The notes below the pieces were generated by a model that was not told the origin of the DNA, ran no database searches, and saw nothing but the letters and a program-made list of their open reading frames with translations. This document shows, one piece after another, positions 1 to 33,421 of a stretch of DNA of 64,000 bases. A program made the translations under genes and the position numbers. The stretch comes from an uncultured Candidatus Bathyarchaeia archaeon (GTDB lineage Archaea; Thermoproteota; Bathyarchaeia; Bathyarchaeales; Bathyarchaeaceae), in the NCBI GenBank assembly GCA_964418675.1, contig CAYQMM010000003.1, positions 152,202-216,201 on the forward strand, given 5' to 3'. How positions within the stretch are numbered: position 1 is the stretch's first letter; the number at the start of each line of letters is the position of its first letter.

Positions 1-432
1 AGGCGTACTTTTCATGCGTTCAAAACCAAGATTAATAGTGAAATGCTTCCCACAACTCTTACAGTAGTAAACCTGAATGTCTCCACGTTTATTGTGCCTC
101 ACTCCATCCCTAACCAAATTTTCAGAACCACAAATTTGACAAGATTGCAGATTCGCAATAGGTTCAATTTTTACTTTCTCAACCGTTCTTCTTAGAGCAA
201 TCGAAAATTTTACAGCAAAAATGTGCTTACATTTCACTCCCCTAAATTGATGGTCTGGACACTCACAAACCCAGTTGTTATCTACTTTAGAAACGATATA
301 GCTACCATTTCCGCTTTGAGAAAGAACCCGATAAGAGAAACTGTCAACATTTCGGATGCTGTTTCGGTTATTATTAAAAATCTCTAAACCTCTTTCTTCC
401 CGAAGTTTTTGGAGTTCTTGTATGCTCATCAT
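1..432 (-). CDS. IS/transposase-like protein, N-terminal part only (SWIM-type zinc finger plus CxxC...CxxC zinc ribbon); the gene runs off the left edge
   Basis: This is my own reverse-strand translation from the ATG at 430-432: MMSIQELQKLREERG...NNWVCECPDHQFRGVKCKHIFAV...CQICGSENLVRDGVRHNKRGDIQVYYCKSCGKHFTINLGFERMKSTP. The frame is open to position 1. It is absent from the supplied track because its 3' end is cut by the window edge. Confidence 0.6.
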   Translation of the reverse strand, partial: MMSIQELQKLREERGLEIFNNNRNSIRNVDSFSYRVLSQSGNGSYIVSKVDNNWVCECPDHQFRGVKCKHIFAVKFSIALRRTVEKVKIEPIANLQSCQICGSENLVRDGVRHNKRGDIQVYYCKSCGKHFTINLGFERMKSTP

Positions 433-436
433 AGGC

Positions 437-545
437 TTTACCTACAATTTTACCTATACACTTACCTAGTATATAAACATTTAGGTAAAAAAATTAGACA
501 ACAAATAGGTAAAAAGTTTTATAAGTTACCTACAACATTACCTAC
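437..545. promoter_or_regulatory. Array of seven TTACCTA heptamers (five direct, two inverted) in the divergent intergenic region; likely an operator/iteron array, with TATA-like boxes
   Basis: TACCTA cores start at 439, 451, 463, 527 and 539, in direct orientation with 12-bp phasing. TAGGTA cores start at 482 and 506, inverted and 24 bp apart. AT boxes are tatataaa at 470-477 and ttttataa at 517-524. Confidence 0.5.
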
Positions 546-561
546 TCGTAGAGGAAATAAT

Positions 562-753
562 ATGAACGAAAAAGAGGACTTGGGGGAAACAACAACACTC
601 ACACCCGCAACCACAAAAAGTACCTCAATGAGAGCAACTGTCCCCATGAGCATAATCAAACAATTCAACCTAAAAGCAGGAGACAAACTTGGTTGGAAAC
701 TTAAAATTGAAGATGGGGAATTGGTGGTAATTGTAAGACCGATAAAAGAATGA
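562..753 (+). CDS. AbrB/MazE/SpoVT-type DNA-binding protein (63 aa)
   Basis: The C-terminal half of track ORF 409..753 reads ...SMRATVPMSIIKQFNLKAGDKLGWKLKIEDGELVVIVRPI, a typical swapped-hairpin AbrB fold signature. I moved the start to the ATG at 562 because the upstream part of the ORF is the repeat-laden promoter region. Confidence 0.7.
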   Translation: MNEKEDLGETTTLTPATTKSTSMRATVPMSIIKQFNLKAGDKLGWKLKIEDGELVVIVRPIKE

Positions 754-761
754 AAAAAAAC

Positions 762-3700
762 TTAGTCAAAATTAATTTCAGCGTTAAGATAATTTCCAAA
801 TGATGATAGTATGTTGTTTTTTACTTCATCTATTGCCTCATATTTTTTGCAGATTTCTCTTTGTTTATCAATATCATATTCTCCATCATCTTTAATGGGT
901 ATTTTCAGGATAGCTTGTTTCAATATTGACAGTGTTACTCTTTTATTCCCTTCACCGATTGCATAATCTTTGAGAGTTTTCGATAAATAGCGGTGAATAT
1001 AACCAATGTCGATTTGGTCTTCATAGTCGCCTTTTAACAATAAAACGCCACAATGAGTTGTTATGCTAAATTTTCCATTCCTATAGAAGACAGTTCCAGC
1101 ATAAATCCCATCTGTTGTCCACGTAATACATTCAGAATCATAATCGTATGTGTCAATGCACCCAATTACTCCTTCATCAGTGGTTTTAGAAGAATAAACG
1201 GGATATGATCCGCTATGAGTTCTAATGTAATTCAACGTATATTTTGCAGAGCCTTTATGACACTTGAAAAACTTTGTTATGTTTTCCTCTACAAAGTTGT
1301 CTCCAATTTCAAAATCTACAGATGCCGATTCAATTTCATCCTTAATCATTGACAATTTGCTTTTTACTTCTTCAATCTGATCTATTTTTCCAAGAAGATA
1401 TGTCTGATCGTCTAAACTGTAGTTTCCCGTATTATCAACAGGTATAGGAATTGTCAAATCCCTGATTTTGGCAACACCACATTTATTGCTATATAAAAAA
1501 CCCGATGTCAAAAATTTTCTTTCAAGTTGCCATCGCAAATAATCTAAATTCATTAATTTCCCATACTCGTTCTTAAGAAGCATCACACGATGATCATCAT
1601 TTGTAGCAAATCTGTGTTTATGTACAAAAACCCTTCCAACATGAACGCCATTTCTGTTCCAACCTATACAGTCCTCATAGTATTTTATCCCCTGAATGTT
1701 ATCTCGAATTTGACCAATTATTGAGCTTTCATGTTTTGAGCAACCATGAACAGGAACGTCTCCATCATTTTCCCTACAAAACTTTCTTGTTAATTTAGTG
1801 TTGGTTGGTGGAAATTTAAACAAATCACCGATTTTTGCCTGTTTAAACTCTATCTTTTTTTGTGTTTTTTTTAAGGTTCTTAATTTTTCAACACTTTTAG
1901 AAAATACGTCACCTGTGTCTTCAATTTTTTCTATAAATTCGTCTAGTTCCAAAACTTCTGTTTCTTCTTCTATACCAAGATCGATTTTTTCCTCTTTTGT
2001 CCACCAATTATCAATATACCAATACTCCTCTTTGTCAAATCGTTCAATTGGTTGCAGTTTGCATCTTGGATCGCCAATTTCTTTTACTGGAAAAGTGTTT
2101 GGTGAGCCTTTATACGAATTGAATAAATCCTTTGCTTTTTCTAAGTCACTTTTTCCTTCTATTTCAAATCTATAGACATTTAATTGTTCACCAATGTTAC
2201 TTACTAAATAGGTGAATACTGGGAAGTCTTGTTCTTGTTTGGGATTATTCTTTTTTGTTATTCCTAGGATGAATGTTTTTTGTGGTGTATTAAAGAATGT
2301 TTTTGATGGTAAAGATATTATACAATTAACGAAACACTGTTCTCTAATATACTTCCTCAATTCTTTATTTTGTCTAACATTCAAGATGCTGTGAGGTATT
2401 ATTACAAATGCTCTGCCATTACGCCTTAAACTTCGTATTATCCATTCTAATGCTAATCCATCTACGCCTTTGCTACCTGTAGTATAGTAAGCTTGCAATC
2501 CTTCTGTTTTTATTTCTTCTTTTATTGAGGTAACGCCACTTGTTATGTATGGAGGATTTGTTAGGATAAGATCATATTTTTCAGCTTCGTTGGTTATGAT
2601 CCTGTTTAATGTTCCCAAATTTGACTCAGTTAAGAAGTGAAAAATACGATTAAAAAGTGCAGAGAACTCTTTCGTGATGTTTGGATACTTCTCTACAATA
2701 TCTGATAGGTAAATGAGAAGATTAGCTTTAGCAAGTATTATAAGACGTTCCTCATCACTGTCCGAACCTTTATCATAACCCTCGTAGGTTATTGTGGGTT
2801 CTATTTTCCCGTTTTTAGGAATAAAATCTTGCTTCCTAATGGGCTTTTGTATTGTTTCTGCTATGAAGCCACCTACACCACAAAAAGGATCGCATACCCG
2901 TGAACCCTCTGGGAGTTTCTCAACATCAGCCATATCTACAATGGCTCGAACAACTTTTCTAGGTGTGAAAAATTGTCCTAATCTACTCTTATCTGAGCTT
3001 TCTTTAAGAAATGTTTCAAAAAGCTTTGTCTTAAACTCTTTCTTGATATGCCTAAGTGTTGTAAAATTATCATATTTTTTTAGTGTACTTTTGAAAAGAT
3101 TGGCTTGGCTGAAGACAGGGTTACCACTTGCATCTACAAAAATAGTACCATTTATGATGGTTGTTTTATCTTTTCCTTCTGGGAATAGTTCTCTTATTTT
3201 CTTGCGTGTATTTATAGCGTAGTAATTAAGCACATCTTTGTTCTTGACTTTTTGAGCATACATACCATATACAGTTTTGAAGTCATTTGGAACTTTGAGA
3301 ACTTCAAGATCGCTAAGGAATTTAAAGATAAACAGTTCAACAACATTGTACAAGCATTTTTCAGGTTCTTTTCCAGTGTTGATATAAATGTCTTGCCATA
3401 CACCTTTAGCTAAACTTAGCGGATCGACGGTTTCAGTGGGGATTAGTGTAGAATTTTTCTCATTTACTGCCGATAATATTCTATCTACATAATCCAATGT
3501 ATTTTTTGTTGTCTCCGCTAACTTGTCAAAAATAGGCTCGGAAACATCTTGGATTACAAAAGGTTCACTTAAATCTTTTTTATCCTCATTCCTAATGATC
3601 GAATAACTACGTTCAACATTGTACTTGTCTCTGTATGTGTTATTCTTGTTTGATTGTCTTGGGTTTATCCAGATGAATAGTTGTCCATCGGTAATTACGC

Positions 3701-4010
3701 CCATTTTTGAATTTAGAACTTGACAAACATCGTTACATTGTTCTATAGCGCTTTTCTTTTGGGCATCAGTCCTAAACTCTGATGGTTGCTTATATTCTAC
3801 TACAGCGATTACGGTAATGTTTTCTTTGTTTTGCCTATTGACAAGTAAGCCGTCTGGTTTTCGTTGGGAATATCTGCCGTAATCAACATTGGGAATAATT
3901 CGATAATTTTTATACTGATTGAGCGTAGTGTCTTGGGTAGGAAAATATTCAAGATGTCCAATTTTGACACCCGCTTCCGTAAAACCCTTACTTATTAATT
4001 CTTCGCTCAT
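762..4010 (-). CDS. Single-polypeptide restriction-modification enzyme (Type IIB/IIG-like RMS fusion): N-terminal PD-(D/E)xK nuclease, gamma-class N6-adenine methyltransferase, and a C-terminal two-TRD specificity region
   Basis: The 1082-aa ORF carries PDGLL...VVEYK (nuclease), QFFTPRKV (motif X), DPFCGVGGF (motif I, AdoMet binding) and TNPPY (motif IV). About 460 aa at the C-terminus form two similar HsdS-like halves. Confidence 0.8.
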   Translation of the reverse strand: MSEELISKGFTEAGVKIGHLEYFPTQDTTLNQYKNYRIIPNVDYGRYSQRKPDGLLVNRQNKENITVIAVVEYKQPSEFRTDAQKKSAIEQCNDVCQVLNSKMGVITDGQLFIWINPRQSNKNNTYRDKYNVERSYSIIRNEDKKDLSEPFVIQDVSEPIFDKLAETTKNTLDYVDRILSAVNEKNSTLIPTETVDPLSLAKGVWQDIYINTGKEPEKCLYNVVELFIFKFLSDLEVLKVPNDFKTVYGMYAQKVKNKDVLNYYAINTRKKIRELFPEGKDKTTIINGTIFVDASGNPVFSQANLFKSTLKKYDNFTTLRHIKKEFKTKLFETFLKESSDKSRLGQFFTPRKVVRAIVDMADVEKLPEGSRVCDPFCGVGGFIAETIQKPIRKQDFIPKNGKIEPTITYEGYDKGSDSDEERLIILAKANLLIYLSDIVEKYPNITKEFSALFNRIFHFLTESNLGTLNRIITNEAEKYDLILTNPPYITSGVTSIKEEIKTEGLQAYYTTGSKGVDGLALEWIIRSLRRNGRAFVIIPHSILNVRQNKELRKYIREQCFVNCIISLPSKTFFNTPQKTFILGITKKNNPKQEQDFPVFTYLVSNIGEQLNVYRFEIEGKSDLEKAKDLFNSYKGSPNTFPVKEIGDPRCKLQPIERFDKEEYWYIDNWWTKEEKIDLGIEEETEVLELDEFIEKIEDTGDVFSKSVEKLRTLKKTQKKIEFKQAKIGDLFKFPPTNTKLTRKFCRENDGDVPVHGCSKHESSIIGQIRDNIQGIKYYEDCIGWNRNGVHVGRVFVHKHRFATNDDHRVMLLKNEYGKLMNLDYLRWQLERKFLTSGFLYSNKCGVAKIRDLTIPIPVDNTGNYSLDDQTYLLGKIDQIEEVKSKLSMIKDEIESASVDFEIGDNFVEENITKFFKCHKGSAKYTLNYIRTHSGSYPVYSSKTTDEGVIGCIDTYDYDSECITWTTDGIYAGTVFYRNGKFSITTHCGVLLLKGDYEDQIDIGYIHRYLSKTLKDYAIGEGNKRVTLSILKQAILKIPIKDDGEYDIDKQREICKKYEAIDEVKNNILSSFGNYLNAEINFD

Positions 4011-4160
4011 CAGGATCGGCTAAAAATATATGATTGCATCCATATATCCTTTATCGACTTCATCTTGTACAAAAAAGGGGTTTTATTAGTCAGAATATGC
4101 TGATGATTAACACCTTTACGGAAAGTAGCCAACTCTTCGTAGGTTTCTATCCCACGACAG

Positions 4161-4613
4161 TTAACACCCTTTCCCATCCCGCAAGGAGTTAACAGAACCC
4201 GACTTCAGGCTCTTATTCTTCAAAGTCTCCAGATAGGCTGCCAACCCCTCTATGTCCTTGACATCATGTCCCACCAAACCGGATAATCTTCTCCAGAAGA
4301 GAAGATTGGGGGTAATTTTCATCCCTTCTAGGCAACGAGCCAAGCGGTGTGTCCAGTTTTTGCCCTGCCGGTCAAAGTCCAAGAGCAGGATGACTTTGCG
4401 TTCTCCGCTTTTTTCTATTTCTCCAACAACGTCGAGGAAGGATTTTCCCGAGGTTTTTGCCGAAATTATGTTGCCGGTTATTCCCAATCTGTTGAGGGTT
4501 TGGATGTCGTTTCTTCCCTCCACCACTATGGGAGTGCCGTTGCTTGCTTGCTTCTTCAGTCTTTCCAAAAGTTTATGGATTTCTTCAAGCCTCTTCTCCG
4601 TTTTCGTTGACAA
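4161..4613 (-). CDS. Small Toprim-domain protein (RNase M5/primase-like, COG1658-type)
   Basis: VVEGRNDIQTLNRLG...VILLLDFDRQG shows the Toprim E...DxD pattern in a 150-aa protein. Confidence 0.65.
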   Translation of the reverse strand: MSTKTEKRLEEIHKLLERLKKQASNGTPIVVEGRNDIQTLNRLGITGNIISAKTSGKSFLDVVGEIEKSGERKVILLLDFDRQGKNWTHRLARCLEGMKITPNLLFWRRLSGLVGHDVKDIEGLAAYLETLKNKSLKSGSVNSLRDGKGC

Positions 4614-20582: not shown

Positions 20583-20671
20583 GGGCCGGTAGTTCAGTCT
20601 GGTATGAATGCCGCCTTCGCAAGCACAGCAGAAAGAGGCGGAGGTCGCGGGTTCAAATCCCGCCCGGTCCA
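20583..20671 (+). tRNA. tRNA-Ala(CGC) with a 14-nt canonical intron
   Basis: GGGCCGG-UA-GUUC-AGUCUGGUAU-GAAU-G-CCGCC-UUCGCA-[AGCACAGCAGAAAG]-A-GGCGG-AGGUC-GCGGG-UUCAAAU-CCCGC-CCGGUCC-A. The G3:U70 alanine identity pair is present and CCA is not encoded. Confidence 0.9.
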
Positions 20672-20918
20672 CTTTGGAATGCTCTCTGTTTATCTGTGTG
20701 TTTTTTGAGAAAAAGCCTGTTTTCAACAATACGCTGTGATTAGGCTCCAAATATGTTTGTTATTTCTGCTTAATTTCTTGTTTACTGGAACTCTTGTAGC
20801 CATAATAGGTGGAAATAAAGGTGGAATATTGACGAAATTGGTGATAAATACGAAAAGGTTTTTAGTTCCGTTCTATAACAACACAGACAAAACGTAGTTC
20901 ATATATGAGGTGAAATGA

Positions 20919-28443: not shown

Positions 28444-29261
28444 TTGAGGTTAAGGATCTGCATTTCACCTATCCCACCGGCGTCGAAGCCCTGAGAGGAA
28501 TCAACCTCACCGTCGATGACGGAGAATTCTTAGCGGTCATGGGGCAGAACGGCGCTGGAAAAACAACTCTGGTGAAGCATTTTAACGGGCTTTTGAAGCC
28601 AACGGAGGGTGAGATTCTGGTTGACAGTGTGAGCACCCGAGATGTAAGCGTAGCCCAGCTAGCTAGAACCGTTGGTTTCGTGTTTCAGAATCCAGATCAC
28701 CAACTATTCAGCGAGACAGTGGAGGAGGAGATTGCCTTCGCCCTCCGAAACTTTGGTTTCAAAGAAGCAGTCATAAAAAAGCAGGTTGACTGGGCACTAA
28801 ACCTTCTAGATGTATCTCAATATCGGAAGACATCCCCCTTCATGCTCAGCGGCGGAGAAAGAAAACGAGTTGCTTTAGCCTCAATCCTCGCTTGGGACCC
28901 TAAAGTGATCATTCTAGACGAACCAACAATAGGTCAGGATCACCAGCAAAAGGAAAAGCTGATGCAATTCATTCTCCAACTTAACGCCCAGAAAAAAACC
29001 GTGGTCATCGTCACTCACGACGTAGAATTTGTCGCAGAATGCAACCCTCGCGTCATACTGATGAGCCAAGGAAAAATTTTGGCTGAAGGCATAGCAGAGG
29101 AAATTTTGACAAACCAGAAGTTGGTGGCGCAGGCTTCCATAATTCCTCCACAGATAACCCAGATTTTTCTGGAACTGGCTGATTTGGGCTTGCCAACGGA
29201 TGTTATTGGCGTTCATGAGGCAGCGAAGATTCTGTTAAATCGAATGAGGGGAAAGCAATGA
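28440..29261 (+). CDS. ecfA2: ECF transporter ATPase component A2
   Basis: GQNGAGKTT, LSGGERKRVALA and ILDEPTIGQD, with a 4-nt overlap with ecfA1. Confidence 0.9.
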   Translation: MIEVKDLHFTYPTGVEALRGINLTVDDGEFLAVMGQNGAGKTTLVKHFNGLLKPTEGEILVDSVSTRDVSVAQLARTVGFVFQNPDHQLFSETVEEEIAFALRNFGFKEAVIKKQVDWALNLLDVSQYRKTSPFMLSGGERKRVALASILAWDPKVIILDEPTIGQDHQQKEKLMQFILQLNAQKKTVVIVTHDVEFVAECNPRVILMSQGKILAEGIAEEILTNQKLVAQASIIPPQITQIFLELADLGLPTDVIGVHEAAKILLNRMRGKQ

Positions 29262-30079
29262 GCGTCTTCGAAGGCTTCAAATTCAGGAAAGTCTCTTCTG
29301 CCATCCACAGGCTGGACCCAAGAATCAAATTTTTCTACGTTATCGTCTTGTTTGTGATGGCGATTCTATTCACCAAGCTGCTGGCACTGATTGTCCTATT
29401 CTTCGTACCCTTGCCCTTCGTTTTTATGGCAAGAGTCAAACGAGAATGGCTGCGTTCCCTGAGAGGAGCCGCATTCTTAGCTATCTTCATCTTCGCAACA
29501 AACTTCATCTTCGGATACTTCTATCCAACATCATTCACGGAAATAACTCCCCCCGTTGACACAATCGGAGAGATTCTTGTTCTTTTGGAGCGAGCCTCAG
29601 CCATGACTCTACGTTTCGTCGTTCTAATTGCATCCTTCTCCGTATTCTTTCTAACAACTTCGCCTGACCATCTAGGCTTGGCGCTACAGCAGAGTCACAT
29701 TCCCTACGAGTTTTGTTTTGCCTTCACAACTGCGGTTCGTTTTGTCCCTGTCTTGGCTGACGAGGCGCAGACCATCATGGATGCTCAGAAGGCTAGAGGA
29801 TTGGAGTTGGAGCGTGGAAACTTTCTTAAACGGGTGAGAAACTACATTCCCATCCTCATTCCGCTGATTGTTAATGCCATCAGAAGAAGCTTGGAGTTGG
29901 CGGAGGCTATGGAGTCTCGGGCTTGGGGTGCCAGCGAAAAACGCACAAACCTCTACGTGCTCAAACTTAAACGGGCAGATTACCTCCTCGTCCTGCTTTC
30001 TGTTCTGATGCTGATCATTGCTGTTTACGTCTGGCTATACGTCCCCATTCCCACATTAACAACACTTCTTAACCTCTAA
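29258..30079 (+). CDS. ecfT: ECF transporter transmembrane component T (CbiQ family)
   Basis: This 273-aa polytopic membrane protein follows the two ATPases and carries the conserved ARG...E region (MDAQKARGLELE). Confidence 0.85.
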   Translation: MSVFEGFKFRKVSSAIHRLDPRIKFFYVIVLFVMAILFTKLLALIVLFFVPLPFVFMARVKREWLRSLRGAAFLAIFIFATNFIFGYFYPTSFTEITPPVDTIGEILVLLERASAMTLRFVVLIASFSVFFLTTSPDHLGLALQQSHIPYEFCFAFTTAVRFVPVLADEAQTIMDAQKARGLELERGNFLKRVRNYIPILIPLIVNAIRRSLELAEAMESRAWGASEKRTNLYVLKLKRADYLLVLLSVLMLIIAVYVWLYVPIPTLTTLLNL

Positions 30080-30196: not shown

Positions 30197-30292
30197 TTAT
30201 TTGGTCTTCTTTCTTCGTCTCTGCCTCTTCTTCTTAACCCGCTTCTGTTTCTTCTTAGCGGTCTTTTTTGTCATGCCGTGATGTCTTGCCAT
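30197..30292 (-). CDS. Possible 31-aa extremely basic peptide
   Basis: My own translation is MARHHGMTKKTAKKKQKRVKKKRQRRRKKTK. It is below the track threshold, has no homology support, and is reminiscent only in composition of L41e-type peptides. Confidence 0.25.
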   Translation of the reverse strand: MARHHGMTKKTAKKKQKRVKKKRQRRRKKTK

Positions 30293-30385
30293 TCTAGTCC
30301 AGTTTCCTTCCACATTAGTCTAAAGTGTGATTCTTAAAGTTTTACGTTACCATCCTTGCGGCGATTATTAAAGCTTATTTCACCC

Positions 30386-30453
30386 GGTTCTGTAAAGTCT
30401 TCGGTTGATGGCATGTTTTGAGAGGGCTGTAAAAAATCGGTTGATAGAACTTT
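30386..30453. repeat. Left terminal inverted repeat (68 bp) with an internal CGGTTGAT duplication
   Basis: ggttctgtaaagtcttcggttgatggcatgttttgagagggctgtaaaaaatcggttgatagaacttt. Confidence 0.9.
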
Positions 30454-30535
30454 GCAGTGGACATGCTACGAAGAGCCTCTATACCTTTCTAATCGGTTTT
30501 ATATAGCGAGTAATGAAAGCATTTAACGGTTTAAA

Positions 30536-31021
30536 ATGTCTGAAGATGAATCCACAAAAGAAATGCTCAGTAAAATAGCTTCAAAAGTATCTACATTTGC
30601 AATTGGAAACTATATTCAACCTATACATAGCTTGAAGGACAGCTTAGAGAATCATGATTGGTTTAAGGGGTTAATTCTGTCTACGACTTTCTTAGAGATG
30701 TTTGGATTCTTGAGCTTAAGAACATATTATGAGCAAAACGTAGACCGTGAACACCATAAAAAAATCGGAGAATTCCTTTATCGTTCTGGACTAGCACGGA
30801 TAATAACGTTATTGTATTTCTCGGGTTTAATAAAACGTGATAGCTATACCAAAATGATTGAAATTAACAAAGCAAGAAATGAAATAGTTCATCGTGTACG
30901 AAGAATAAAAAAAGATGAATTTGCTTTTGACGATGAGATAGATATTAAATTTGAGAGAAAAGCAAAAAAACTGATTAAGCAGACAATCATATGCCTCAAA
31001 GAATTGGGAGTATCTCACTAG
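30536..31021 (+). CDS. HEPN-motif protein (predicted RNase-type toxin/effector), cargo of the TIR element
   Basis: The 161-aa ORF looks all-helical and carries an R-x4-H motif with the typical Asn after Arg (KARNEIVHR, R114...H119) in the C-terminal third. This is motif-level evidence only. Confidence 0.5.
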   Translation: MSEDESTKEMLSKIASKVSTFAIGNYIQPIHSLKDSLENHDWFKGLILSTTFLEMFGFLSLRTYYEQNVDREHHKKIGEFLYRSGLARIITLLYFSGLIKRDSYTKMIEINKARNEIVHRVRRIKKDEFAFDDEIDIKFERKAKKLIKQTIICLKELGVSH

Positions 31022-31131
31022 ATGAACTAGACCATATAATTCCACATTCAAAAGGAGGAAAAACCGAACTTCAAAATGCACAAATTACCCATAAATCCTG
31101 CAATGCCCAAAAATCCAAAAAGACACCATAG
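30991..31131 (+). pseudogene. HNH (His-Me finger) nuclease core remnant or mini-ORF overlapping the end of the HEPN gene
   Basis: My own translation in the other frame is MPQRIGSISLDELDHIIPHSKGGKTELQNAQITHKSCNAQKSKKTP, showing the DH...N...H..CN pattern. The N-terminal CxxC half of a normal HNH domain is missing. A 1-nt frameshift within 30979-31018 would fuse it to the HEPN ORF. Confidence 0.45.
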
Positions 31132-31218
31132 ACTCTTCGTGAAAATGGCAACAAAAGGCAACTCTACAGTATCTTCATCCACATCTTTTTATGTCCAATC
31201 CTGAATAAAGATAGATTT

Positions 31219-31713
31219 ATGGCATCAGACGAACAAAACAAATCTCTATTGGTACAATACCGAGAATGTTGGGCAGAGATTAGAAATTTAGATACTTTAA
31301 TTTGGCAAATTCCTTCAATAGCCATGGCAATTAATTCTTTTTTTGGGATTGCCTATCTCGGTTATGCAAAAACCCCTGAGGCAAGAATGATACTATTGTT
31401 TGCATCATTCGCATTCAATTTTGTTTCCATTATTACACTAAGAAAGCACCGTTTCCTTCAGATTGCTCGCACAGAGGATTTGATATGGGTTCAAGAAAGA
31501 TTGAGACAAACCGTAAAAATACGGAATATAAAATGGCAAACAGCACTGATTCTTTCAGATACAGAACAATATCGTGATGTCCCGAGAGACGGAATGATAG
31601 GCATTTCAGCATATCGATGGTTACTCGCTGTACTATGTTTAACATTAATTGTTATTACTACCGTACTAATGGTTGAAATACTTACTTTCTATTTTACATT
31701 TATTCTAAACTAA
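31219..31713 (+). CDS. Multi-pass membrane protein, cargo of the TIR element
   Basis: The 164-aa ORF has hydrophobic segments IPSIAMAINSFFGIAYLGY, MILLFASFAFNFVSIITL and WLLAVLCLTLIVITTVLMVEILTFYFTFIL. Its stop codon lies 2 nt inside IR-R. Confidence 0.55.
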   Translation: MASDEQNKSLLVQYRECWAEIRNLDTLIWQIPSIAMAINSFFGIAYLGYAKTPEARMILLFASFAFNFVSIITLRKHRFLQIARTEDLIWVQERLRQTVKIRNIKWQTALILSDTEQYRDVPRDGMIGISAYRWLLAVLCLTLIVITTVLMVEILTFYFTFILN

Positions 31714-31779
31714 AGTTCTATCAACCGATTTTTTACAGCCCTCTCAAAACATGCCATCAACCGAAGACTTTACAGAACC
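31712..31779. repeat. Right terminal inverted repeat (68 bp)
   Basis: It is the exact reverse complement of 30386-30453. Confidence 0.9.
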
Positions 31780-32011
31780 TTTCACCCAATGAAGCAGCTG
31801 AATAAACTTGTTCCCTGTTTCGAGAACATCCCTCAGAAGATTCAGTTATTTTTGTTGTCATCTGCCTTGATTAAGCGTCCAGTGTTTCGTGAGGCTGTTT
31901 CAGAGTCGCTCCATTTCATCATCACGTTAAAGCTCAGAGCGGTGTCCCTCATCACACAATAAACGTCTTACATGAAAGTTTAAAACCTTATCCTCAGGTT
32001 CCGATGCTCAG

Positions 32012-33421
32012 CTAGTTGTTATCCAACTTGAATTCTCTGTGGACCGCGCGAACAGTCTCTTCCCCATCCTTTTCTTTGACTACGAAAGAGACGTTAAGTT
32101 CAGAAGAGCCTTGAGCAATCATGCGCACGTTTATCCCCTTCAGTGCGACAGCTGTGAATATCTTTGAAGCAATTCCAGGCATTCCTTTCATGCCAGCCCC
32201 TAAAACTGCGACTACGCAAACGTCGTCTTCAGATGTCACTTCTCGGATGAAATCCCTGCCCAGAAGAGCTATCTCCAAGGTGCTAATTGCCTTCTCCAGC
32301 AGGCTTCTCTGAATCACAAGGGAGATGTTCGACTCTGAGACGCTCTGCGAAATCATCAGGATATTGATGTTTTCTCTTCCAAGCACGTCGAAGACTTTAG
32401 CGGCTGTTCCGGGGGCGCCCACCATGCCTGCGCCGCTCACCGTAATCACAGCAACGTTCCTGACTAGGGTTACGGCTTTCACGCCATCTTTCCGCTTGAC
32501 CTTCTGCTCCTTCCCTATGAGAGTTCCCATGTTGTCCGAGTTGAAAACGTTTCTAATCCTGACCGGTATATTTTCTTTTCGGGCTGGTTCCAACGCTCTG
32601 GGGTGCATGGCTTTGGCTCCGAAAATCGTCAGTTCTGTGGCTTCTTGGAAAGACAGCTGGGAAATCGTCTTTGCCGAAGGAATAATTTTGGGGTCAGAGG
32701 TCATTAGTCCGTCCACGTCTGTCCATATCCAAACTTCGTCGGCGGCTAAGGCGGCTCCCATGATGGTGGCTGTGTAGTCGGAGCCTCCTCGACCCAAGGT
32801 TGTGGTTTCTCCATCCTGAGTTGCCGCTATATACCCAGTTATAACCGGGACAGCTCCCTTTTTCAGCAGAGGCTCAATCTTCTTCTTAACTTGATATTTG
32901 GTTACGTTCATGAGGAGACCGGCTTCCCCATAATTGGAGTCAGTCACTATGCCCGCTTCTCCTCCGGTGAGGTGCGGAGACTCTAGCCCCATGTCCTTAA
33001 GGGCTCCGCTGACTATGGGGACGGATAATTTTTCTCCGAAAGAAAGAACGTTGTCCATCGATTTTGGGGTGAGTTCGCTCACGTAGCTGATTCCTTTCAG
33101 GACTTGTTCGAGTTCGTCCACCCTTTCCTTTAGAACCTGTTCTGTCTCTTCCTTTAACTGCTTATCTTCGACGGCTTCGTTGGCAGCACTCAAATGTTTT
33201 TGGAGGAGTTTCTGTTTGAAGTCGCTGATGTACTTGCGGTTCCCTTTTTTTGCTTCCTCTGCCGCCTTTATCAGCTGGTCTGTAACTCCGTCCAAGGCTG
33301 AAACCACTGTGACAATCTTGTAGTCTTGACCAGCATGGTTGGCGATGAGGTTGGCTACGTGGCGGATGTTCTTGCCCGTGGCTACTGAGGTGCCTCCGAA
33401 CTTCATCACTATCTTCTTCAA
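32012..33421 (-). CDS. lysC: Aspartate kinase
   Basis: MKFGGTSV, the kinase body and two C-terminal ACT-like repeats; 469 aa. Confidence 0.9.
   Translation of the reverse strand: MKKIVMKFGGTSVATGKNIRHVANLIANHAGQDYKIVTVVSALDGVTDQLIKAAEEAKKGNRKYISDFKQKLLQKHLSAANEAVEDKQLKEETEQVLKERVDELEQVLKGISYVSELTPKSMDNVLSFGEKLSVPIVSGALKDMGLESPHLTGGEAGIVTDSNYGEAGLLMNVTKYQVKKKIEPLLKKGAVPVITGYIAATQDGETTTLGRGGSDYTATIMGAALAADEVWIWTDVDGLMTSDPKIIPSAKTISQLSFQEATELTIFGAKAMHPRALEPARKENIPVRIRNVFNSDNMGTLIGKEQKVKRKDGVKAVTLVRNVAVITVSGAGMVGAPGTAAKVFDVLGRENINILMISQSVSESNISLVIQRSLLEKAISTLEIALLGRDFIREVTSEDDVCVVAVLGAGMKGMPGIASKIFTAVALKGINVRMIAQGSSELNVSFVVKEKDGEETVRAVHREFKLDNN

Follow-up and report, generated by a model that had tools for sequence, protein, structure and literature searches.

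A transposase-less 1.4-kb element with archaeal IS6-like ends, carrying HEPN-family and membrane-protein genes, in a Bathyarchaeia genome

The spacer between the ecfT and lysC genes of an uncultured Candidatus Bathyarchaeia archaeon (assembly GCA_964418675.1, contig CAYQMM010000003.1) contains a 1.4-kb insertion that is framed by inverted repeats and encloses small genes, none of them for a transposase. The question raised by this locus is what kind of element the insertion represents, and whether the genes inside form a system of their own or travel as independent passengers. The stretch analysed, referred to here as the window, comprises 64,000 nucleotides (positions 152,202 to 216,201 of the contig, forward strand) and is numbered from its first letter; the element body occupies 30386-31779 (1,394 bp). 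As set out below, 30386-31779 is in all likelihood a non-autonomous derivative, of the mobile insertion cassette (MIC) type, of an archaeal (Bathyarchaeia) family of IS6-like transposons. The element is an unusual form of a known element type, not a new kind of system.

The left terminal inverted repeat (TIR) lies at 30386-30453 on the plus strand and the right one, its exact reverse complement, at 31712-31779 on the minus strand. Both arms are 68 nt long with 100% complementarity, and both are recognised by a profile of the family of ends described below (nhmmer, E=2.4e-17 for the left arm and E=3.3e-17 for the right). With up to 3 mismatches allowed, the 68-mer arm was identified at these 2 sites only in the window, where shuffled sequences predict 0 matches. 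The octamer TTTCACCC can be read directly on both sides, at 30378-30385 and at 31780-31787, as an 8-bp target-site duplication. Each arm is built in two parts: in the left one a tip repeat within 30386-30409 (GGTTCTGTAAAGTCTTCGGTTGAT) is followed by a variable spacer (30410-30426) and an inner repeat (30427-30445, CTGTAAAAAATCGGTTGAT), the latter being a recurrence of the tip stretch CTGTAAAGTCTTCGGTTGAT (30390-30409). A preliminary description of the locus, made from the sequence alone, had reported perfect 68-bp repeats, an 8-bp duplication, a duplicated word (CGGTTGAT) inside each arm, the lack of a transposase and a position between an ECF transporter gene and lysC. All of this holds: there is no third copy of the arm in the window, TTTCACCC adjoins both arms, no transposase open reading frame (ORF) occurs within 30386-31779 and the flanking genes encode an EcfT/CbiQ-type protein and an aspartate kinase. 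The word is real and longer than had been claimed, as it belongs to the ~20-nt repeated site.

Perfect inverted repeats in a short-read metagenome-assembled genome (MAG) could be the product of a chimeric or fold-back join in the contig, and an independent assembly (Logan, run SRR14802574) does break at the repeats: a unitig of 1,318 nt covers the interior and another of 3,465 nt the lysC side. However, each unitig stops exactly 30 nt inside an arm, as a genuine inverted repeat predicts for a k=31 graph, and both junction k-mers are present with no branch at that point. The precise 8-bp duplication, which agrees with the single octamer of the relatives, and the presence of homologous ends and cargo in many independent assemblies also speak against an artefact of this kind, which is considered extremely improbable.

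The gene for the EcfT/CbiQ-type protein is located at 29258-30079 and that for the aspartate kinase (lysC) at 32012-33421 on the minus strand; the nearest relatives of the latter protein are from Bathyarchaeia. The same gene order, formed by homoserine dehydrogenase, lysC, spacer, ecfT and ABC ATPases, was identified at two related loci (loci are designated here by L and a number), L123 (GCA_964623205.1) and L122, whose LysC proteins are 88% and 90% identical to that of the window. Their ecfT-lysC spacers of 600 nt and 529 nt, respectively, are uninterrupted, can be aligned to the window on both sides of the insertion point and through it, and contain the octamer once each (TTTTACTC in L123 and TTTCACTC in L122). 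The alignment at this point reads attattaaagcttaTTTCACCCaatgaag in the window, attattaaagcttaTTTTACTCgatgaaa in L123 and attattaaagcttaTTTCACTCggatgaaa in L122, the junction expected of an empty or excised allele being aaagcttaTTTCACCCaatgaagc. Empty spacers with a single octamer in two relatives indicate that the insertion took place in the window lineage. The empty-site check had been named beforehand as decisive for the mobile-element reading, and its outcome favours mobility. The preliminary description had also argued for recent mobility from the perfect identity of the arms; this is a weak inference, but a lineage-specific insertion is better backed by the intact duplication and the empty sites.

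The same evidence bears on the possibility that the arms are a fixed structural inverted repeat or the borders of an invertible segment, acting as a switch. Perfect 68-nt repeats could allow inversion by homologous recombination, and neither an internal transposase nor a second identical copy was found. Such a reading is contradicted by the flanking 8-bp direct duplication and by the empty sites in the two relatives. Elsewhere, moreover, the same ends enclose other, unrelated cargo, and each of these unrelated sites has an 8-bp duplication of its own; the neighbourhood lacks a gene for an invertase or recombinase; and the low GC of the element (0.32-0.38 vs 0.45-0.52 in the flanks) points to a foreign origin. 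A structural or invertible repeat is therefore very improbable.

Two small features were observed in the spacer itself. A very basic 31-aa ORF (MARHHGMTKKTAKKKQKRVKKKRQRRRKKTK; 30200-30292, minus strand) is conserved in L122 and L123, whose spacers are syntenic. On the side towards lysC there is a C/D-box sRNA-like gene (31898-31959, minus strand), and the element landed between the two, ~90 nt upstream of the ORF start. The sRNA-like gene matches Rfam sR2 with 26.6 bits (gathering score 42) and E=0.0028, the boxes GTGATGA / CTGA / GTGATGA / CTGA are visible, and the stretch is 94% conserved in L123. The Rfam scan gave no match inside the element.

Ends of this type are not confined to the window. 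The 24-nt tip was identified in 6 GTDB genome contigs, 5 of Bathyarchaeia MAGs and 1 of a Methanosarcinaceae MAG, and the 22-nt tip in 102 metagenome contigs; the search of IMG/VR with the 22-nt tip returned no contig. The two-part layout is retained in 69 of the 104 distinct related ends aligned, and their consensus has the tip GGTTCTGTAAAGTCTTCGGTTGAT on the outside and the inner copy CTGTAAAAAATCGGTTGAT beyond 10-20 nt of variable spacer. A ~20-nt site that occurs twice in an end is what one would expect if the transposase binds each end at two places, and the two repeats are candidate binding sites on the strength of this layout. Perfect 8-bp duplications flank five relatives: L013 (732 bp, CTTGTTCG), L014 (4,099 bp, CGCTTGGA), L027 (8,770 bp, TTAATTTC), L047 (2,595 bp, TTGCTTGG) and L066 (718 bp, CGGAAAAC). 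In L109 and L119 (1,273 bp) the flanking octamers agree at 7/8 positions. Window-type ends are common to transposase-encoding elements, including L005 and L047, and the closest foreign end (L063) is 92% identical over 64 nt. The two ends of an autonomous member differ from each other (82-84% identity), whereas those of small derivatives such as the window element and L109 are nearly identical. The search with the TIR for further copies and an autonomous element, proposed in the preliminary description, recovered more than 100 contigs with family ends and transposase-encoding relatives, but no second exact copy. The exact cargo proteins were found only in the source sample.

Some arrangements of ends in the metagenomic contigs are worth recording in their own right. 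A solo end tip lies beside the same 244-aa ORF in nine soil-metagenome contigs (L033, L039, L084, L096, L102, L106, L108, L046 and L115); such a recurrence suggests an orthologous site where a relic has become fixed, and many further loci are single-ended too. Stacked ends of the same orientation, 2 or 3 in number and ~64 nt apart, were identified in L080 (three, 4185-4381), L058, L027, L028, L031 and L121, and suggest that elements repeatedly inserted at or beside an end already in place, with later deletion. In L035 (502-1704) and L101 (1691-2893), and also in L052 and L110, inverted copies of the 24-nt tip enclose a TnpB gene (NCBIfam guided_TnpB, 126.7 bits). At the TnpB loci the inner repeat is absent, the flanking 8-mers are mismatched and the tip ends in TTGAT. 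TnpB may here be the cargo of a mini-element or belong to a TnpB element that landed in an end.

The family can be classified by the transposases of its full-length members. In those of L005 and L014 (372-383 aa) a SWIM finger at the N-terminus and a Zn-ribbon are combined with a DDE_Tnp_IS240 domain, which Pfam detects with 56 bits (cutoff 27). Among NCBIfam models 'IS6 family transposase' scores highest for them (112 and 124 bits, cutoff 125), and on plasmids the proteins closest to them are the long IS6/ISCpe7 transposases of Clostridium, with 27-30% identity. L005 (35-5095, 5.06 kb, ends 84% identical) contains, along with the transposase gene, a GmrSD_N-HNH gene, an ArsR-type helix-turn-helix gene and four unknown ORFs; the 8-mers flanking its ends differ (CGTTGTTA / TGTTTTCA), as expected after recombination between copies or an intramolecular event.

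Hallmarks of the IS6 family are 8-bp duplications and ends that start with GG and contain a cTGT motif (PMC7986276). At the window locus TTTCACCC is present on both sides and as a single copy in the empty sites, and five relatives have perfect 8-bp repeats. The tip GGTTCTGTAAAG of the window element contains GG and CTGT, followed by AAAG instead of the spaced caaa. The DDE_Tnp_IS240 match is a property of the full-length relatives; the window element has no transposase and is thus a derivative, not an insertion sequence (IS). The likeness to IS6/IS26, and among these to the ISCpe7-like clade h with its N-terminal zinc finger and to the archaeal 'IS6' clades, consists of the 8-bp duplication, the GG/CTGT ends and the best matches of the relatives' transposase to DDE_Tnp_IS240 and the NCBIfam IS6 model. 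Typical IS6 members are ~800 bp long with a single ORF and ends of 15-20 bp with a cTGTt...caaa motif, and one passenger-carrying member and two ORF-less miniature inverted-repeat transposable elements (MITEs) are all that a review of the family counts (PMC7986276). The elements of the present family, in contrast, measure 0.7-8.8 kb with passengers, their ends have 55-68 nt with two repeated sites, and their transposase carries SWIM and Zn-ribbon domains at the N-terminus.

IS-type inverted repeats around passenger ORFs, together with a target duplication and no transposase, are the structure of MICs (MIC231 of the Bacillus cereus group), and the repeats, the duplication and the missing transposase are also shared with MITEs; for these elements mobilisation in trans is presumed. 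Known MICs derive from IS231/IS4, Tn3 and few other families, in bacteria, and none from IS6-like elements or from archaea was found in the literature consulted. A typical MITE is a few hundred bp long and non-coding, whereas the window element has 1,394 bp and two intact ORFs under purifying selection. A MITE was therefore ruled out, the element being too long and too rich in coding sequence. A transposase 3' stub alone beside an end was identified at >20 related loci, which indicates that internal deletion is common in the family. The preliminary description had not recognised the element as any named system, but its ends and relatives place it with the archaeal IS6-like elements, as a MIC-type derivative.

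Several points weigh against this placement. With two-part ends of 55-68 nt instead of 15-20, the repeat of the window element being well outside the IS6 norm at 68 nt, a size of several kb, passengers and NCBIfam scores just below the cutoff, the family departs from canonical IS6 elements. Harmer and Hall proposed that archaeal 'IS6' may fall outside the IS6/IS26 family, no archaeal member having been tested (PMC6807381). A cognate transposase with the ends of the window element was not identified in the 64-kb window, and no second copy of the exact element was found anywhere, which weakens the case for repeated mobility of this particular element. Finally, many of the related metagenomic ends are solo, so that some family members are relics. 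A viral or plasmid origin was also considered and rejected: IMG/VR contained no relative of the end or of the membrane protein described below, PLSDB contained none of the HEPN-family protein, and no PHROG matched the window proteins.

A second, larger IS6-like element is cut by the start of the window (1-4199) and is also of low GC (0.31-0.37, low up to ~4,000-4,200). It comprises the N-terminus of a transposase (432..1, minus strand; 62% identical to that of L005 and 78% to that of L080), a divergent AbrB/MazE-like gene (562-753), a gene for a 1082-aa restriction-modification-like protein with N6_Mtase and Methylase_S domains (762-4010) and a right end at 4140-4199 (reverse complement GGTTCTGTTAACTCCTTGCGGGATGGG). 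This end is identical at 45/60 positions to the duplication-validated end of L027 (subtype GGTTCTGTTAAC) and reaches into the 3' end of a Toprim-domain ORF (4161-4613). The second element is probably autonomous. Its transposase fragment indicates that a related transposase is present in the same genome, with another end subtype. As a candidate for the cognate enzyme of the 1.4-kb element the fragment, which is the only transposase gene of the window, was rejected, because it belongs to that different subtype; cross-mobilisation by this transposase is possible but unsupported. Elsewhere in the window ARAGORN identified a single tRNA, a 90-nt tRNA-Arg (CCT) at 20583-20672, whose length suggests an intron, consistent with an archaeal host.

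The first gene of the 1.4-kb element (30536-31021, plus strand) is complete and encodes a 161-aa protein of the HEPN superfamily with the motif R114-N115-x3-H119, identified from homologues, profiles and an AlphaFold2 (AF2) model. Its four close homologues have 160-161 aa and a common C-terminus (...CLKELGVSH), and their profile retrieved 175 proteins at E<=0.001 from 1.84 billion cluster representatives. In an alignment of 50 of these distant relatives (21-45% identity) the only invariant residues are L93, R114 and H119; R114 and H119, which are also invariant in the four close homologues, form the R-x4-H of HEPN domains (R-x4-6-H). The relatives match Pfam HEPN_RiboL-PSP (10 members, best E=7e-5), HepT-like, HEPN_Apea, HEPN_MAE_28990 and DUF4145. 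For the window protein itself the match is to HEPN_LA2681 (E=0.012), under the gathering score, which no Pfam HEPN model reaches. Among PDB entries the profile matches best to the Csm6 HEPN domain (E=0.055), whose RNKVAH is aligned to eRnklvH. The AF2 model (pLDDT 83) is all-helical with a short hairpin, and its top Foldseek matches are mostly HEPN proteins (MtlR, HepT toxins, AF_0298, 1wwp, 1o3u and sacsin HEPN), all of them weak (E 0.14-2.5, TM 0.45-0.65). The HEPN assignment, made in the preliminary description from the motif, is thus supported by the invariant R-x4-H, the Csm6 alignment and the weak Pfam and Foldseek matches, and we conclude that the protein is a member of an unnamed HEPN family. 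By its motif it is a putative metal-independent RNase, and nuclease activity may be expected of it. The dN/dS against the homologues is 0.21-0.37.

The 161-aa protein shares with the HEPN RNases (HepT, Csm6/Csx1 and the RiboL-PSP/Apea/LA2681 types) the predicted all-helical fold, the R-x4-H that aligns to RNKVAH of Csm6 and, in its family, sub-threshold to weak matches to five HEPN Pfam families. It differs in having no adjacent MNT, CARF or other partner domain and in the family being unnamed; no ORF for an MNT antitoxin was identified in the element or its immediate flanks. Upstream of the gene, ~30 nt from the ATG, there is a candidate archaeal TATA box (TTTATATA, 30498-30505, plus strand). 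DNA similarity to L012, a homologue locus lacking TIRs, begins at ~30497, at this box, which indicates that the HEPN gene travels with the stretch upstream; the box may serve as promoter element. A unit of TIR and HEPN gene recurs in L009, with 75% nt identity over element positions 9-635. There (L009 1362-2605) a transposase 3' stub comes after this closest relative of the unit, and beyond the stub lies a 354-aa tyrosine recombinase (Phage_integrase), so the HEPN module also occurs in mosaics with other mobile elements.

Overlapping the 3' end of the HEPN gene is a 46-aa ORF (30991-31131) that matches Pfam HNH (E=4.8e-10) and has lost the first CxxC of its HNH finger. The preliminary description regarded it as a remnant that a 1-nt frameshift would fuse to the HEPN ORF. 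The DNA that begins directly after the HEPN stop codon (31022-31121) corresponds, with 74% identity, to the final 100 nt of a gene of L005 (L005 116-215). The 417-aa product of this gene comprises GmrSD_N and HNH domains, matches PADLOC NsnA (E=6.8e-42) and has an 82% identical counterpart in L111; a tblastn search with it found only residues 385-417 represented in the window. To judge from these matches, the HNH piece (31022-31131, plus strand) is a dead 3' deletion stub of a GmrSD_N(DUF262)-HNH nuclease gene. As its DNA corresponds to the 3' end of a separate gene, the overlap of HEPN and HNH is a deletion junction. The remnant therefore stands, and the HEPN-HNH fusion was rejected, since the HEPN homologues all stop at the same residue and the HNH DNA has its match in the separate gene. 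The fragment resembles the GmrSD/DUF262-HNH type IV restriction-like nucleases (PADLOC NsnA-like), as in L005 and L111, in representing the C-terminus of their HNH domain; it differs from them in that only the ~33 last residues are left in the window, the GmrSD_N domain and the first HNH Cys pair being gone, as in a pseudogene stub.

The last gene (31219-31713, plus strand), identified from homologues and hydropathy, encodes a 164-aa protein with two strong and one weaker membrane helices. Its stop codon overlaps the right arm by 2 nt, in agreement with the earlier description of a membrane ORF reaching into the right TIR. The protein has 13 homologues, which share the motifs QYREC..IR, IWQ.PS..MAINSF..I.YLGYA and KHRF.Q.AR, and an AF2 model (pLDDT 75) formed by long helices. 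No match to it was identified in NCBIfam, PADLOC or PHROGs, Foldseek against PDB gave generic helical bundles only, and the family's matches in Pfam are at chance level (best E=0.0075, DUF2270, 2/13 members). In L014 the order is transposase, 353-aa ORF, membrane gene and TIR, the membrane gene thus adjoining the right end of an autonomous element. It is the sole gene of the 732-bp mini-element L013, where the stop codon is also inside the TIR. The gene lies beside a family end in 3/4 of its other contexts and was found without a nearby end only in L017-L019. With a dN/dS of 0.08-0.18, it is clearly a selected gene travelling with family ends.

Both intact ORFs are, by their dN/dS values, under purifying selection, which agrees with the possibility, put forward in the preliminary description, that they form a dedicated mini defence or addiction cassette, in which a HEPN toxin or abortive-infection effector would be spread by the TIR vehicle along with a membrane sensor, immunity protein or second effector. 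The invariant R-x4-H is in agreement with this, as are the GmrSD_N-HNH (PADLOC NsnA) and the 1082-aa restriction-modification-like methyltransferase/specificity proteins of sister elements and the reported lack of CRISPR-Cas in Bathyarchaeota (PMC12669027). However, the two genes were identified together in the window element only: L009, L010 and L012 have the HEPN gene but no membrane gene, and L013, L014 and L017 have the membrane gene but no HEPN gene. Profile searches for both families found no further members in the ~100 TIR-bearing loci. The 161-aa and 164-aa proteins have no PADLOC match at E<=0.1, neither an MNT-type antitoxin nor another partner is present, and the pairing looks like a by-product of the deletion that left the HNH stub. 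A two-gene module is consequently unlikely, and we consider the HEPN and membrane genes to be independent accessory genes, of conflict or addiction type, and not a demonstrated two-gene system.

How the two genes came together is a matter of the history of the element. It may be a composite in which a left module (TIR, HEPN gene and HNH stub) and a right mini-element resembling L013 were fused by adjacent insertion and deletion, the ends being homogenised later. The separate occurrence of both halves agrees with this, as TIR and HEPN gene form a unit in L009 and membrane gene and TIR form another in L013 and L014, and a degraded end may lie beyond the HNH stub, at 31144-31173, to judge from a pairwise alignment. 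Stacked ends of the same orientation are common in the family, L080 with its three being an example, and nearly identical ends distinguish the small derivatives from autonomous members. On the other hand, the nhmmer profile of the family did not recover the putative internal end, not even at E<=10, and such a fusion is a tentative possibility. It concerns the history of the element, not its nature, and is compatible with the MIC-type derivative proposed above.

For the MIC-type derivative the following course may be proposed. Internal deletion or recombination would have produced the element from a transposon of the family, leaving an intact HEPN gene, the dead 3' stub of a GmrSD_N-HNH gene and an intact membrane gene as cargo. 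The element was inserted into the ecfT-lysC spacer in the window lineage, duplicating the octamer TTTCACCC. Movement would presumably have been in trans, by an IS6-like transposase binding the two ~20-nt sites of each end, and the duplication would be accounted for by a cut of the target with an 8-bp stagger. Should the enzyme act like that of the bacterial IS26, a cointegrate would have been formed and later resolved.

The locus offers a clean example of the decay of an archaeal IS6-like element to a transposase-less cassette, for which the filled site, the empty sites and full-length relatives are all available. The reviews of the IS6 family consulted describe neither two-site ends of 55-68 nt nor passenger loads of this kind. 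Two small uncharacterised protein families are defined as well: one is a HEPN family in which R-x4-H is invariant, the other a membrane protein that lies next to the end and is under strong purifying selection. Among the cargo of the transposon family identified so far are a restriction-modification-like methyltransferase, a GmrSD-HNH nuclease, the HEPN protein and possibly TnpB. A far-reaching and rather unlikely proposal would be that an undescribed IS6-like clade of Bathyarchaeia, with a SWIM and Zn-ribbon transposase, a divergent AbrB-like gene and two-site ends of 55-68 nt, shuttles defence or conflict genes, and that the window derivative is a minimal trans-mobilisable abortive-infection or addiction cassette of HEPN RNase and membrane protein, in which the end-adjacent membrane gene benefits the element. 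Should the cargo be related to defence or addiction, such elements would be a means by which immunity genes spread through a major lineage of sediment archaea that seemingly lacks CRISPR-Cas.

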